Shown here piece by piece: positions 10,430-54,874 of a DNA stretch of 64,000 bases. Source of the DNA: Klebsiella phage fENko-Kae01; the sequence record OR228459.1; one strand, given 5' to 3'. Made by a program: the position numbers and the translations under genes. Below the pieces are notes generated by a model. The model was not told the origin of the DNA and searched no databases. It was given only the letters and a program-made list of their open reading frames with translations. Within the stretch, counting starts at the first letter, position 1, and each line of letters opens with the position of its first letter.

Positions 10430-10430
10430 A

Positions 10431-10460
10431 GAAAAAGGAGGCTTTTGCCTCCTTTAATTA
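10431..10460. terminator. bidirectional intrinsic terminator between convergent genes
   Basis: AAAAAGGAGGC-TTTT-GCCTCCTTT palindromic hairpin flanked by A/T tracts on both sides. Confidence 0.6.
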
Positions 10461-10462
10461 TG

Positions 10463-11866
<1,404 letters not shown>

Positions 11867-11912
11867 TTATTTTGTTTTTGTTATGTAACTATTTAGCAAC
11901 AAAATATGATTT

Positions 11913-11944
11913 TTTGGGACAAATCGGAAATGATGTGATATAAT
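11913..11944 (+). promoter_or_regulatory. conserved promoter class (TTGGGACAAA-N10-TGTGATATAAT)
   Basis: exact match to the repeated promoter architecture. Confidence 0.6.
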
Positions 11945-11974
11945 ATAAAAACATACAACTAACGAGGAACATAT

Positions 11975-40228: not shown

Positions 40229-40723
40229 ATGTTTGAATGGGATCAAGAGAAGTACTTTGATCCTACCGAGGACGGTTTAACTCACATCAATACATATAGT
40301 AAAGGAAGAACCGTATTGGGGAGGATGCTATCAAATTTTGCATACTCCCCTTTTGTGTATGAACCATACGGGAAATTTGATTCAGTTGAGGGATTCTGGT
40401 ACTGGTACTTAACTGGACAGAAGCATGAAGACTTGAGAACAGTAAGTGGTTCATATGCTAAAGTACTTGGTAGGAAATATGAAAGTGATAGGGTAGAACA
40501 TTCTCTCACTGAAGAAACAATTGAAGTAATGCAAGGTGCAATGATTAGTAAGATTGCACAGAATAAAGAACTACAGGAAATGTTAATTAGTAGTACTTTG
40601 CCTCTATGTCATTACTATTTCATGTATGGACGTGTCATAAATCCCTTTGATGGTCATGATTGGTTCTCCGAGACATTGGAGGATATTCGGACGGTATTGA
40701 AACTTGGGACAAATGATGTTTAA
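40229..40723 (+). CDS. NADAR-domain (YbiA-like) protein, putative ADP-ribose processing/N-glycosidase
   Basis: HINTYS...SNFAYSPF; SVEGFWYWY; ISKIAQNKELQEMLISST parallel YbiA blocks INFYS..FSNFA, TSEHYFQAQK, KFEQHAELRALLLAT. Confidence 0.55.
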   Translation: MFEWDQEKYFDPTEDGLTHINTYSKGRTVLGRMLSNFAYSPFVYEPYGKFDSVEGFWYWYLTGQKHEDLRTVSGSYAKVLGRKYESDRVEHSLTEETIEVMQGAMISKIAQNKELQEMLISSTLPLCHYYFMYGRVINPFDGHDWFSETLEDIRTVLKLGTNDV

Positions 40724-40734
40724 TGTGATATAAT
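40703..40734 (+). promoter_or_regulatory. conserved promoter class (CTTGGGACAAA-N10-TGTGATATAAT) driving a non-coding transcript
   Basis: exact match; no ORF follows for about 600 nt. Confidence 0.6.
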
Positions 40735-40741
40735 ATGTGTA

Positions 40742-41190
40742 GATATAACAATTGTGGCTGCTTTATGCAGACGTACTAAAACCGAAACCCTTGAAAACGT
40801 AAAGGGACGATGAGCATGACCACACATGCGAAGTGCAGATGAAACCCGCTCGGCGGCAATGCGGCACTATAAAAGGACACGTAAGGCACGTTAAGTCCTC
40901 TTGATAGACATATGAGGTCACTCACCAAAATGCTAAGGGAGACGTTTATACGTCGCATATAGAGCTTGATCGAATAGGCTTTGTATGATGTGGACTAAGA
41001 CCCCGACCGTTGCATATGACTGTGATAGAGAGAAACAGAGCAACCCGCTTTCGTTCTTTGACCAGTTTTAGTACGCTATAGTTGTATCTAAAATTCAGAG
41101 AAATTCACAATTCGATAATTCCGAGGCTACCAGCGTCAGAATCAATAATCAATAATCAGTACTTTAATTAGTACTTTTTTATTGTCTTCA
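40742..41190 (+). ncRNA. candidate structured non-coding RNA (~450 nt) with its own promoter and terminator
   Basis: ORF-free in all frames; relatively GC-rich for this genome; many local hairpins; bounded by promoter 40703-40734 and terminator 41158-41184. Confidence 0.45.
41158..41184 (+). terminator. intrinsic terminator
   Basis: AGTAC-TTTAATTA-GTACT then TTTTTTATT. Confidence 0.55.
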
Positions 41191-41345
41191 TTCCCCAATG
41201 GGGGGATGAAATTGCCTCTACAAACCTCGTCAGGAATAAAAGTACAATATGAATTGAGTTACGATAATACGAACGTAGTGAGTATTAAGAGTAACGAAAA
41301 TTCTTAGACAATCGTAGATTGGCTAATTAGACAATAGGAACAATA

Positions 41346-42311
41346 ATGAATAAATTAAACAGATCACAAGGTTGTTTAATGGGACTAGCTGTAGGTGATG
41401 CAGTAGGAACTACCTTAGAATTTAAACAAAGAGATTCAGAGAATATCACTGATATGGTAGGTGGTGGCCCATTCCAATTAGAAGTAGGTCAATGGACTGA
41501 TGATACCAGTATGGCATTATGTTTAGGCTATGCATTGCTAGAAGATCATAAAGTAGAAACTTCTGATTGGTCTAGATTGCAATTAGTTAATTACGTTGAT
41601 TGGTACAAAAATGGTTATTGTAGTTCTAATGGATACTGCTTTGATATTGGCGGTACTACTAGTAATGCATTACTAAATTTCATCCGTAATGGTACACTTG
41701 TTAACAACGATCATTTTCTTGATTCTGGTAATGGTAGTTTAATGCGTTTAGCTCCAATCCCAATCTATTATAATACTGGTGCTGATGTTGATAAGTTCAC
41801 CTATTTGTGTTATGCAGCCGATATGAGCAGTTCAACTACACATGCAAGTACTTTATGTCGTCAGTCATGTGTTGCGTTTGCTGTACTACTTAATCGTGCT
41901 TTAAATGGCCCGATTGAATTAGAAAATGTTGAACATGATGTATTACAATCAAAGCGTTCATTACTTTCTTTCCCAGAAAAAGTTTGGGAAGGTCTTGTGA
42001 GTGAACCTTTAGTACTAGAAATCATGAATGGTTCTTATAAGAATAAGTCACGTGATGAAATTAGTTCTAGTGGGTATGTTATTGATAGCTTAGAAGCCGC
42101 TCTATGGTGCTTCTGGAACACCGAAAACTTCCGTGACGCAATCCTATTAGCTGCTAACTTAGGTGACGATGCAGACACCGTAGCGGCAATTACAGGGCAG
42201 ATTGCAGGTGCTTTCTATGGTCTTGATGGTATACCAGATGAATGGGTACAGAAGATTGCCAAGAAAGATGAAATTTTACAATTAGCAGAGGACTTGACAG
42301 ATGGGAATTAA
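41346..42311 (+). CDS. ADP-ribosylglycohydrolase family protein (ARH/DraG-like)
   Basis: N-terminal GCLMGLAVGDAVGTTLEF and C-terminal GDDADTVAAITGQIAGAFYG are the characteristic ARH metal-binding motifs. Confidence 0.8.
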   Translation: MNKLNRSQGCLMGLAVGDAVGTTLEFKQRDSENITDMVGGGPFQLEVGQWTDDTSMALCLGYALLEDHKVETSDWSRLQLVNYVDWYKNGYCSSNGYCFDIGGTTSNALLNFIRNGTLVNNDHFLDSGNGSLMRLAPIPIYYNTGADVDKFTYLCYAADMSSSTTHASTLCRQSCVAFAVLLNRALNGPIELENVEHDVLQSKRSLLSFPEKVWEGLVSEPLVLEIMNGSYKNKSRDEISSSGYVIDSLEAALWCFWNTENFRDAILLAANLGDDADTVAAITGQIAGAFYGLDGIPDEWVQKIAKKDEILQLAEDLTDGN

Positions 42312-44413: not shown

Positions 44414-44445
44414 CTTGGGACAAACTAGGATTTATGTGATATAAT
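44414..44445 (+). promoter_or_regulatory. conserved promoter class upstream of tRNA
   Basis: CTTGGGACAAA-N10-TGTGATATAATATAATTA. Confidence 0.6.
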
Positions 44446-44453
44446 ATAATTAC

Positions 44454-44544
<91 letters not shown>

Positions 44545-46821: not shown

Positions 46822-46897
46822 GCTGCAATAGCTCAGTAGGTAGAGCAACTCACTTGTAATGAGAAGGTCGCGGGTTCGATTCCTGCTTGCAGCACCA
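46822..46897 (+). tRNA. tRNA-Thr (anticodon UGU)
   Basis: acceptor GCTGCAA/TTGCAGC, D-arm AGCTCAGTAGGTAGAGC, anticodon loop CTTGTAA, T-arm GGTTCGATTCC, encoded CCA. Confidence 0.8.
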
Positions 46898-54763: not shown

Positions 54764-54839
54764 GGGCCAGTAGCTCACGTGCGGTTAGAGCAGACCCCTC
54801 ATAAGGGTAAGGTACGGTGTTCGACTCACCGCTGGCTCA
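54764..54839 (+). tRNA. tRNA with CAU anticodon (Met, or Ile2 if lysidinylated)
   Basis: acceptor GGGCCAG/CTGGCTC, D-arm GCTC...GAGC, anticodon arm ACCC-CTCATAA-GGGT, T-arm CGGTG-TTCGACT-CACCG; CCA not encoded. Confidence 0.75.
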
Positions 54840-54874
54840 CTACATAACATTATATACAATTTGAAGAATCAATA

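Follow-up and report, generated by a model that had tools for sequence, protein, structure and literature searches.

Comparative evidence for a large structured non-coding RNA gene in Enterobacterales jumbo phages and prophages

The stretch of DNA analysed here, 64,000 nt from Klebsiella phage fENko-Kae01 (OR228459.1; hereafter the window), contains an ORF-poor gap of 622 nt (40724-41345), which lies between an ORF upstream (40229-40723) and an ADP-ribosylglycohydrolase (ARH) gene downstream (41346-42311). Coding density is high in the window, as the original prediction had it, its figure of about 95% comparing with roughly 90% measured under plus-strand ORFs of at least 60 aa; the sole larger plus-strand gap, at 10430-11974, is a block of minus-strand genes. 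The longest ORF inside the gap is exactly 60 aa (minus strand, 40776-40958), so that the claim of no ORF of 60 aa or more fails by a single residue, which is immaterial, and holds in essence. The G+C content is indeed above that of the surroundings (0.43-0.465 across 40700-41000 versus about 0.35 in the flanks), the single-sequence fold has a z-score of -3.19, and the GC skew shows no switch at the site. Across the region of the element the phage shares 98.5% identity with the Salmonella phages Munch and 7t3, and it is a RaK2/121Q-like jumbo phage rather than a classical T4-type phage.

A sigma-70-type promoter faces the gap, in agreement with what had been proposed. It scores 10/12 against GGGACA-17-TATAAT with the extended -10 TG present, its extended -10, TGTGATATAAT, occupies 40724-40734, and the predicted start falls at about 40741-40742. 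The motif occurs nine times in the window, always on the plus strand and once at 2-3 nt before tRNA-Ser. Promoters of this type also precede the tRNA genes of the phage. A TGnTATAAT box stands at the head of all family members whose 5' flank was aligned, and the same promoter motif precedes the copy in an E. coli island.

All RaK2/121Q/GAP32-type jumbo phages examined carry homologous units of 480-730 nt in gaps left without annotation, full-length copies being recovered by nhmmer, and orthologous copies span the genera RaK2, 121Q, GAP32 and BF. This clade keeps three to four diverged paralogs per genome: Munch, for instance, has four, at about 40, 182, 263 (the copy studied here) and 316 kb, which score 102-119 bits with the CM, are dispersed over the 350-kb genome and each have their own promoter. 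The 64-kb window holds no second copy, the core CM giving 119 bits at the element and 13.5 bits at the next-best match. Other copies, found in Serratia, Silvania and E. coli, lie at the edge of enterobacterial prophages or islands, where they are single and adjoin an integrase (serine or tyrosine) and/or a CI repressor. Only two of 5426 complete E. coli genomes carry one, and zero copies were found in the plasmids searched; matches in IMG/VR to the 16-mer GAGCAACCCGCTTTCG, located in contigs of about 55 kb, were set aside, as they gave no match to the long model. In every context examined the element sits between complete genes, and these differ. The flanking genes of the A copy vary between genera, the genes downstream differ among copies and among genera, and convergent genes lie opposite copy B of Munch and the copies in prophages, with convergent or unrelated neighbours being seen in Silvania, an Enterobacteriaceae MAG, S. 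fonticola and Munch copy B. Clustering of the ORFs within 3.5 kb of every copy returned no conserved partner protein, the clusters reflecting local synteny only. One protein of 257-286 aa is common to three temperate loci and is without a homolog in the jumbo phages.

The whole gap was aligned in growing sets of 11, then 28, 32 and 44 sequences, and covariation was assessed in the 44 distinct sequences of the last. At 82 proposed pairs, 93.7% of cells are canonical, versus 38.8-44.1% with slid partners; compensatory changes are found at 55 of these pairs, and the covariation score of 0.481 (0.06-0.08 with slid partners) was reached by none of 500 shuffles. Conservation and covariation are abundant among the relatives, and many conserved G.U pairs assign the RNA to the plus strand. 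The proposed fold (Table 1) has at least 16 helices, including a three-way junction, P10/P11/P12, which is extended by a 7-bp pseudoknot (PK1) formed by the P7 hairpin loop and a strand 135 nt downstream. Four hairpins named in the original prediction all exist with the support of covariation, and correspond to P1, P2, P4 and P6. Mean column identity is only 52%, and yet 85 columns are invariant in the 44 sequences, being concentrated in unpaired junctions and loops beside the covarying helices and the pseudoknot; the invariant or nearly invariant unpaired blocks are GAUGAG, GCUAAGGGAG, GACCGUUGC, AAACAGAGCAACCCG and CUCGUCA. Two further pairings were considered. A closing helix GAUGAG/CUCGUC shows no covariation, and it was left out of the structure because it has no second pair type and mismatches arise where one side varies. 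A possible GUUGC/GCAAC pseudoknot joining 41009-13 to the P11 loop was set aside, both of its strands being invariant.

Table 1. Predicted features of the RNA locus (positions in the window; paired strands separated by a slash).
Feature	Position	Strand	Remarks
Promoter	40704-40734	+	TTGGGACAA-N11-ATGTGATATAAT; -35-like element TTGGGACA
5' leader with variable hairpin P0 (40758-61/40767-70)	40742-40787	+	hairpin of varying sequence and length in all lineages; in MFE fold; pairs not formally counted
P1 CCCUU/AAGGG, conserved loop GAAAAnGUA	40788-40806 (40788-92/40802-06)	+	87.9% of cells paired; 3/5 pairs compensatory
Junction domain with conserved GAUGAG box, P2, P3, P3a	40809-40868	+	UGAG invariant; P2, P3, P3a 99-100% paired
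P2	40814-18/40825-29	+	tandem G.A pairs possible between G-A dinucleotides on either side (read from sequence)
P3	40832-36/40864-68	+	4/5 pairs compensatory
P3a	40846-49/40853-56	+	20-60-nt insertions here in other members
P4, conserved UA(A/G)GCA loop element	40874-40899 (40874-79/40894-99)	+	6/6 pairs compensatory; up to 6 pair types each
P5 (small hairpin), GCUAAGGGAG strand and P6 together	40914-40954	+	
P5	40914-16/40921-23	+	GAG/CUC vs AAG/CUU
Nearly invariant single strand GCUAAGGGAG	40932-41	+	AAGGGA invariant in 44 sequences
P6, variable hairpin	40941-44/40951-54	+	3/3 counted pairs compensatory; long lineage-specific insertions
P7, long hairpin	40956-40987 (40956-61/40982-87, 40963-67/40976-80)	+	10/11 pairs compensatory
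P7 loop AUCGAAU, PK1 5' strand	40969-75	+	pairs with 41110-16
P8 and GACCGUUGC together	40991-41013	+	
P8	40991-93/41003-05	+	97.7% paired; 2/3 pairs compensatory
GACCGUUGC, directly after P8	41005-13	+	invariant; GACCGTTGC invariant
Core three-way junction P10/P11/P12 with PK1 3' strand	41021-41116	+	CM of region gives 119 bits here
P10	41021-25/41105-09	+	99.5% paired
P11, nearly invariant 15-nt loop AAACAGAGCAACCCG	41028-32/41048-52	+	100% paired; GCAACCCG invariant
P12, encloses variable arm	41054-58/41098-102	+	
PK1 3' strand AUUCGAU	41110-16	+	PK1 99.7% paired; 6/7 pairs compensatory, e.g. AUCGAAU/AUUCGAU vs AUUGUAU/AUACAAU
P16 GAxGC-UAyCA-GCGUC, holds first CGUCA box	41123-41138	+	82% paired, mostly invariant or one-side changes; weaker support
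P13, terminator-like AGUACU/AGUACU + U6, optional	41158-41180	+	4/6 pairs compensatory where present; absent in 14/44
Universal 3' core block: pyrimidine tract, P14, GGGGGGAUGAAA, second box CUCGUCA (41226-32)	41185-41232	+	in 44/44, P13-less members included
P14 CCCC/GGGG	41193-96/41201-04	+	99.4% paired, nearly invariant
Tail hairpin UAAUAC/GUAUUA, conserved 11-nt loop GAACGnAGUGA	41265-41287	+	loop motif in ~20/44
P15 CAAUC-GUA-GAUUG in conserved GAAAAUUCUUnGACA...GGCnAAU block	41309-41321	+	97.8% paired; 3/5 pairs compensatory; absent in ~17 members

The 3' part differs from what had been predicted, namely a clean terminator closing an RNA that ends at 41190. A hairpin followed by a U-tract does exist (P13, with the loop UUAAUU), but it is a weak one with only two G-C pairs, which the terminator scan did not call and which almost a third of the members lack. 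The conserved core runs on for 50-150 nt past this hairpin, with the CCCC/GGGGGGAUGAAA block, the second CUCGUCA box and two further covarying hairpins, and conservation and covariation reach about 41330; the unit is therefore placed at about 40742-41330 instead of 40742-41190. The universal core comprises about 490 nt, out of some 590 nt for the conserved unit as a whole. Within this part, the G-run of P14 has an alternative pairing with a CCUC downstream, P15 occurs as CAAUC/GAUUG, CAUUC/GAAUG, CUAAC/GUUAG and CAUAC/GUAUG, and the loop of the tail hairpin, which was detected by regular expression and not by an alignment count, is closed by differing stems (TAGTAC, ATAAC, GTACA, TGGAAT and GAATTACAAT). 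The transcript ends are predicted ones for all members. P13 and its U-tract would probably end only some transcripts, so that a form of about 440 nt would exist beside one produced by read-through; they could alternatively be an efficient terminator in this phage, in which case the conserved 3' part would need a separate explanation.

It might be argued that small protein-coding genes, or a decayed one, occupy the gap and that its conservation is at the protein level. Deposited records (7t3, PHA46, Hallingskeid and 121Q, the last as gene 516) annotate 'hypothetical proteins' of 40-60 aa at the RNA loci, and the window offers both the 60-aa minus-strand ORF and a small ORF at 41206, in which an SD-like GGGGGG precedes the AUG. 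However, stops are found in all six reading frames over the 360-nt core in 44/44 members, only 17% of the indel runs are divisible by three, and frame-shifting indels fall within conserved blocks. One of these, a 1-nt indel after AUGAAAUUG, places the block downstream in differing frames among members and, because the ORF at 41206 is the only candidate there, the conserved 3' block is non-coding. Compensatory substitutions, in addition, link helix strands up to 140 nt apart. As far as sequence analysis reaches, the small-protein reading is already refuted, and we assign it a negligible probability. Compensatory changes well above the controls and no coding signal are together the generic marks of a structured non-coding RNA; the comparative evidence thus strongly supports the original prediction of a large, ORF-free structured RNA with its own promoter, and on this evidence 40742 to about 41330 is shown to be a plus-strand gene whose product is a large non-coding RNA with a high degree of structure.

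Rfam 15, whose 4227 models include ROOL, GOLLD, OLE, group I and II introns, RNase P, 6S, tmRNA, ribozymes and riboswitches, gave no family match to the element at any threshold. At gathering thresholds only five tRNAs were found in the window, all outside the element, and a search of 40650-41400 at E<=10 returned only four chance-level matches of 14-19 bits; eight paralog loci gave zero matches inside the element at E<=1, and four bacterial loci only a TPP riboswitch outside it. With regard to tRNA or tmRNA, ARAGORN reported five tRNAs in 38000-64000, none of them within 40700-41350. A group I intron is rejected, as the element interrupts no gene in any context. The same applies to a ToxI-like RNA of a type III toxin-antitoxin system, since its tandem repeats amount to no more than a 7-nt unit repeated 2.7 times and two trivial overlaps and there is no conserved downstream toxin, and to a mobile-element guide RNA (omega RNA, bridge RNA or seekRNA), since the Pfam-scanned flanks contain no TnpB, IscB or IS110 gene, the neighbours being large serine/tyrosine phage integrases, CI repressors and ordinary phage genes. 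Keyword and sequence-string searches of the searchable literature found no description of this RNA, which represents an RNA family without an Rfam model and apparently undescribed.

The RNA is likely to act on its own in trans rather than as a leader, given that convergent genes lie opposite several copies and that the flanking genes vary from copy to copy. More tentatively, it may serve as a scaffold or decoy for a host or phage protein in phage-host or phage-phage conflict; as no conserved partner protein is encoded within 3.5 kb, this suggestion draws on the genomic setting and on the invariant unpaired blocks and their pattern. Under such a mechanism, the host RNA polymerase would make the RNA early and abundantly, its invariant single-stranded blocks and junctions would bind and hold the protein, and this capture would tilt the conflict, a role that would be useful to a lytic jumbo phage and a resident prophage alike. 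For the explanation as a whole we estimate a probability of about 0.6, the scaffold or decoy role being held at low confidence.

The invariant unpaired blocks would fit equally well if the junction nucleotides formed an active site or a pocket, either for RNA processing or other catalysis or for small-molecule sensing, and the coexistence of 85 invariant columns with covarying helices and a pseudoknot is a pattern characteristic of ribozymes and riboswitches. As read from sequence, the GAUGAG-P2-CGAA junction could even form tandem G.A pairs extending the helix, much like a hammerhead core. The hammerhead signature itself is nevertheless missing, as in CAGAUGAG-P2-CGAAG-P3 the motif CAGAUGA stands in place of CUGAnGA (U4 being A) and GAAG in place of GAAA (the fourth A missing), there is no helix I, and no Rfam hammerhead model matches. 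Even at E<=10 the ribozyme and riboswitch models gave no match, a consistent downstream gene to regulate is lacking, and a ribozyme or ligand-binding RNA is considered unlikely. We hold self-assembly to be less probable again. ROOL, GOLLD and OLE are RNA-only multimers (PMC12286853), and by analogy PK1 or other loop contacts between molecules might build homo-oligomeric particles, with the PK1 differences among paralogs keeping the assemblies separate. ROOL (RF03087) and GOLLD (RF01998) are likewise several hundred nt long, complex, with many covarying helices and invariant junctions, phage- or prophage-borne, often near tRNA genes (the region here is tRNA-rich) and without an obligatory partner gene; PK1 covaries as a unit and differs among the paralog types A, B, C and D, and covariation does not separate intra- from intermolecular pairing. 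In contrast, there is no sequence or CM similarity to either family at E<=10, their hosts are Lactobacillales, rumen or lake bacteria instead of Enterobacterales jumbo phages, they do not share the three to four diverged paralogs per genome, and the direct stacking of PK1 on P10 is what an ordinary pseudoknot within one molecule would show.

A role at replication origins appears very unlikely. ColE1 RNA II and the T4 oriF/oriG transcripts prime DNA synthesis via a persistent RNA-DNA hybrid, T4 having several origins, and the four dispersed copies per 350-kb genome, each with its own promoter, might by analogy mark four origins. Similar to those transcripts, the RNA is about 550 nt long, promoter-driven and folded, with a G-run near its 3' part. 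This G-run is conserved and precedes a stretch rich in A+T that lies beyond the folded part, and the sequence conserved past the terminator-like hairpin could act at the DNA level. However, there is no GC-skew switch at the site and no replication gene as a consistent neighbour, the prophage copies lie at the integrase/CI edge outside replication modules, and the invariant unpaired sequence and pseudoknot exceed what a primer RNA needs, the constraint on unpaired nucleotides being much stronger than such RNAs require. Least probable among these four is a cis-acting leader. Through attenuation or put/EAR-like processive antitermination, it would set how far transcripts pass its own terminator and, in this way, how strongly the downstream ARH operon is expressed. 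The order of promoter, folded RNA, hairpin with U-tract and same-strand genes in the window and in A-type copies recalls HK022 put and other processive antitermination RNAs, in which a folded RNA lies just after an early phage promoter and before a terminator; ARH is downstream in 15 loci, and the G-run has alternative partners on both sides. Yet put is about 70 nt long and acts in cis on downstream genes, whereas here convergent genes follow copy B and the copies in prophages and no consistent same-strand gene lies downstream (Munch copy B, Silvania, the Enterobacteriaceae MAG and S. fonticola), downstream genes varying by copy and genus; the terminator hairpin is missing in 14/44, and conserved structure extends well past it. 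A broader interpretation, doubtful at present, would have the RNA as an undescribed class of large complex-folded RNA ranking with OLE, GOLLD, ROOL and raiA, whose invariant core would stand for a new biochemical function (catalysis or RNA-only self-assembly) and whose four paralogs would be kept distinct by pseudoknot 'address' sequences.

T4-type phages also make stable RNAs. Those from the tRNA cluster of T4, species 1 (RNA C) and species 2 (RNA D), are phage-encoded and of unknown function; they are about 120-140 nt long and processed from the tRNA precursor transcript, whereas the RNA described here is four times larger, multi-copy and under its own promoter. In PA5oct, a jumbo phage of a related clade, the RNA-seq-defined 'lncRNAs' ncRNA001-004 are transcribed regions of 236-619 nt without ORFs, and two rank among the most abundant phage transcripts (PMC7318152). 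The sizes of its 451- and 619-nt lncRNAs resemble the two predicted forms here; however, no structure has been described for them, the core CM found no homology, and nhmmer gave only a match of 47 nt (E=0.09), located at the 3' end of ncRNA004.

Few large RNAs combine many conserved helices with invariant junctions, and those known have historically turned out to be ribozymes, ribonucleoprotein cores and, recently, self-assembling RNA cages. The comparative support for the present family is very strong. The whole jumbo-phage clade keeps the RNA, and it has spread into prophages too; current jumbo-phage annotations leave its loci blank or place spurious small ORFs there. The hosts of the elements bearing it are E. 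coli, Salmonella, Klebsiella, Serratia and Erwinia, which makes genetic and biochemical experiments straightforward. If true, the finding would add a new class of large RNA, residing in phages of E. coli, Salmonella and Klebsiella, which lend themselves to laboratory culture and engineering.

A large folded RNA, here termed the RNA element, with helices designated P0 to P16, is encoded in the gap between two genes at 40724-41345 (622 nt), where its gene has its own promoter. The main interpretation of the original prediction, a large structured RNA gene with its own promoter, was right, as covariation, non-coding character and a recurrent promoter indicate; its boundary and the role given to a "terminator" need correction. 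The gap is gene-free and richer in G+C than its surroundings, as had been predicted: the longest ORF inside it has 60 aa and lies on the minus strand, and G+C reaches 0.43-0.465 at 40700-41000 versus ~0.35 on either side. Plus-strand ORFs of at least 60 aa cover ~90% of the window, in which the single larger plus-strand gap is occupied by minus-strand genes. Of the two neighbours named beforehand, the ADP-ribosylglycohydrolase (ARH) downstream is a solid assignment (41346-42311, E=5e-67), whereas the match of the 164-aa ORF upstream (40229-40723) to Pfam NADAR is weak (E=0.006; 17 bits, below the cut-off of 35), so that this name is not secure.

Coding potential was assessed by counting stop codons in the 360-nt core of 44 family members at <96% identity. 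All 44 carry stops in all six frames (minimum 1-3 and median 5-8 per frame), and just 17% of the indel runs between pairs of members have a length divisible by three. By these measures the element is non-coding. The sole plausible small ORF opens at position 41206 with an AUG preceded by a G-run; it was rejected because a 1-nt indel shifts the frame of the conserved downstream sequence between members.

The fold was derived from covariation, one of the checks proposed at the outset. RNAalifold predicted 67 pairs from 28 sequences, of which 39 show compensatory double changes, and our own covariation scans added PK1, a 7-bp long-range pseudoknot between the P7 loop (40969-75, AUCGAAU) and 41110-16 (AUUCGAU), whose strands in other paralogs include AUUGUAU/AUACAAU and UUCAUGU/ACAUGAA. 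A structure assembled by hand, comprising 16 helices and 82 pairs, was evaluated on the 44-sequence alignment: standard pairs occupy 93.7% of cells, compared with 74.7% upon within-column shuffling and 38.8-44.1% once the 3' partners are slid by 1-3 columns. Both sides have changed in 55 of the 82 pairs (22-30 when slid), with 658 double-change cells (70-111 slid) and a covariation score of 0.481 (0.06-0.08 slid); none of 500 shuffles reached any observed measure. P2, P3, P10, P11 and PK1 are 99.5-100% paired, the four short hairpins noticed originally (P1, P2, P4 and P6) are all among the supported helices, and the single-sequence fold has z = -3.19. Taken together, the covariation indicates that the element is a folded RNA, and the plus strand is the RNA strand, since the opposite one would turn many conserved G.U pairs into A.C. 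About 85 columns, mostly unpaired, are invariant in sequences otherwise 52% identical.

Features of the RNA element, and the tRNA genes and promoter motif copies of the window
Feature	Position	Remarks
5' leader		variable hairpin P0
P1	40788-92/40802-06	conserved loop GAAAAnGUA
GAUGAG box		conserved; precedes P2
P2	40814-18/40825-29	
P3	40832-36/40864-68	encloses P3a and insertion site
P4	40874-79/40894-99	
P5		small hairpin between P4 and GCUAAGGGAG
GCUAAGGGAG	40932-41	nearly invariant
P6		variable hairpin after GCUAAGGGAG
P7	40956-87	long hairpin
P8		followed by GACCGUUGC
GACCGUUGC	41005-13	invariant
P10	41021-25/41105-09	
P11	41028-32/41048-52	nearly invariant loop AAACAGAGCAACCCG
P12	41054-58/41098-102	bears variable arm, absent from some paralogs
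PK1 3' strand	41110-16	directly abuts P10
P16	41123-38	contains first CGUCA box
P13 and U-tract	41158-80	optional hairpin
Pyrimidine tract, P14 CCCC/GGGG, GGGGGGAUGAAA	41193-204 (P14)	
Second box CUCGUCA	41226-32	
Tail hairpin	41265-87	conserved loop GAACGnAGUGA, freely covarying stems
P15	41309-21	
tRNA-Ser-ACT	44454-44544	
tRNA-Thr	46822-46897	
tRNA-Met	54764-54840	
tRNA-Ser-TGA	62814-62905	
tRNA-Tyr	62980-63063	
Promoter motif copies	9043, 11914, 40704, 44415, 46743, 53221, 60585, 62243, 62602	plus strand

P10, P11 and P12 build a three-way junction, and, as read from the sequence, tandem G.A pairs could arise from the G-A dinucleotides on either side of P2. An intrinsic terminator had been proposed to close the element, a boundary now in doubt: hairpin P13 (AGUACU-UUAAUU-AGUACU, then U6, 41158-41180) is weak, with two G-C pairs, was not called by a terminator scan and is wholly absent from 14 of the 44 members, such as EJP2 copy A, 121Q copy C, the D-type copies, Serratia fonticola and Serratia sp. 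2723. In these, CGUCAA leads through a short pyrimidine-rich linker directly to the CCCC/GGGGGGAUGAAA block. Because this block and the second CUCGUCA box occur in 44 of 44 members, the universal core comprises ~40785-41232; it runs across the proposed terminator, and conservation of the unit extends to ~41330. P13 and U6 may terminate a fraction of transcripts in fENko-Kae01, with predicted forms of ~440 nt and ~490-590 nt. Ahead of P13, the linker holds a 7-nt tandem repeat (AATCAAT x2.7, 41140-41158), of which Salmonella phage Munch lacks one unit, the sole length difference between the two copies. Further downstream, the G-run at 41200-05 has alternative partners in the upstream CCCC (41193-96) and the downstream CCUC (41215-18), the latter option being in many members a 5-9-bp stem, GGGGGG-AUGAAAAUG-UCCUCC; these pairings across 41193-41218 may constitute a structural switch. 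The two CGUCA boxes lie at 41134-41138, in hairpin P16, and at 41228-41232, downstream of the G-run. Both read CGACA in the Serratia sp. 2723 copy (L078), which hints at one common partner reading both.

The promoter predicted to fire into the element is present: TTGGGACAA-N11-ATGTGATATAAT (40704-40734) scores 10/12 with an extended -10, and belongs to a 31-nt motif, TTGGGACAA-N11-(A/T)TGTGATATAAT, present in nine copies in the window, all on the plus strand. For the copy at 44415 the start falls 2-3 nt before tRNA-Ser, and the motif therefore serves stable-RNA genes too; another copy precedes tRNA-Thr. Five tRNA genes (ARAGORN) follow downstream of the RNA gene, placing this A copy of the element at the edge of the phage tRNA region. 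The anticodon ACT on a tRNA-Ser is unusual.

The region 40700-41350 is 98.5% identical to the Salmonella jumbo phages Munch, 7t3, SE_PL and PHA46, members of the RaK2/121Q/GAP32/BF group. The gap carries no annotation in the Munch record, and short "hypothetical proteins" in those of 7t3, PHA46, Hallingskeid and 121Q. The entire gap aligns, from the -10 box to ~15 nt short of the next gene, to unannotated 570-910-nt gaps of other phages infecting Escherichia, Salmonella, Erwinia, Cronobacter, Pectobacterium, Serratia, Yersinia and Klebsiella. Between long invariant blocks lie hairpins variable in sequence and length, some with lineage-specific insertions of 20-60 nt, and the flanking genes on both sides vary by lineage. 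The element is a conserved, autonomous unit. A profile built from the first alignment revealed additional full-length copies in the same genomes, diverged paralogs of types A to D: Munch has four, at 40.5, 182.0, 262.9 (corresponding to the window's A copy) and 316.4 kb, all on the plus strand, each within an unannotated 560-690-nt gap and scoring 102-119 bits with a covariance model of the family core (core CM). The window holds no second copy, the next-best core CM match being 13.5 bits. As paralogs within a genome are only ~65-70% identical and orthologs keep their positions across genera, the duplications are old and maintained. The C-type paralog (Munch 40.5 kb; also L055, L060) lies immediately downstream of a RaK2_00244-like gene, annotated as "putative RNA polymerase sigma factor" and without a Pfam match in this analysis, and is followed by a Dam-type methyltransferase and a nucleotidyltransferase.

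In bacteria, scanning one genome per species with a sequence pattern identified homologs of full length at four loci (on the Serratia fonticola chromosome and in Serratia sp. 2723, Silvania hatchlandensis and an Enterobacteriaceae MAG); among complete E. coli genomes, 2 of 5426 carry a copy, in an island adjoining ffs, without PGAP annotation. Plasmids searched had none, and a metagenome scan yielded more members. Bacterial copies always lie at the edge of an integrated element, adjoining an integrase (a large serine or a tyrosine enzyme) and/or a CI-type repressor; the far side is occupied by host genes (thiM with its TPP riboswitch, rof/tilS, or dapE/arsC). Lytic jumbo phages maintain the gene as 3-4 diverged copies, temperate elements as a single copy each. 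The copy in the island of E. coli LR-29-1 (L080, NZ_AP027515.1 3473118-3485555) is headed by the same promoter motif (L080:5933-5963). This island also contains an IS3-disrupted tyrosine integrase, a small recombinase and a convergent trio encoding DUF4326, DUF488 and a dual-OB-domain protein, and may be a defence or DNA-modification island. The invariant 16-mer GAGCAACCCGCTTTCG of the family is also present, always at 673-688, in unrelated smaller IMG/VR viral contigs of ~4-60 kb (L014, L035, L036, L056), which do not match the long profile.

The proposed comparison with Rfam 15 gave no match for the window region (E<=10), eight paralog loci (E<=1) or the bacterial copies, and ARAGORN found neither tRNA nor tmRNA inside the element. 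The GAUGAG...CGAA junction superficially resembles a hammerhead core and lacks the U-turn, the fourth A and helix I. An intron is ruled out by the complete genes on both sides, the element is not a ToxI-like repeat array, and no TnpB, IscB or IS110 gene adjoins it as would befit a mobile-element guide RNA. The related jumbo phage PA5oct has four lncRNAs defined by RNA-seq (PMC7318152), analogous in size and abundance to the RNA predicted here; they show no homology to it, and the core CM finds nothing in them. The 3' end of ncRNA004 (L064:1673-1719) shows a weak 47-nt resemblance (nhmmer E=0.09), its UUUCCUUCCCAAACGGGGAGGAAAUCUUCUCC recalling the family block of pyrimidine tract, CCCC-loop-GGGG and GGAUGAAA...CCUC; its remainder shows no similarity.

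Convergent genes face Munch copy B and the prophage copies, and neighbours differ between copies, which argues with moderate confidence for a stand-alone, trans-acting RNA; no conserved neighbouring protein emerged around the copies. Our best guess, a tentative one (probability about 0.3), is a scaffold or decoy role in which the RNA would bind a protein of host or phage while the two are in conflict. It builds on the ~85 mostly unpaired invariant columns and on the accessory locations, which in the phage adjoin enzymes that remove ADP-ribose and in prophages lie within the lysogeny module. A cis-acting controller of read-through, proposed for the A copy only, would fit these columns and locations too, as would a primer RNA for replication origins, in line with four dispersed promoter-driven units and a G-run followed by A+T-rich DNA. 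They are equally compatible with a ribozyme or ligand-binding RNA, or with a self-assembling RNA resembling ROOL/GOLLD, in which PK1 could form between molecules and separate assemblies through its paralog-specific sequence. The family that the element founds, one of large structured RNAs, lacks an Rfam model and occurs in experimentally tractable phages; searching the literature by keyword and by sequence string turned up no description of it.
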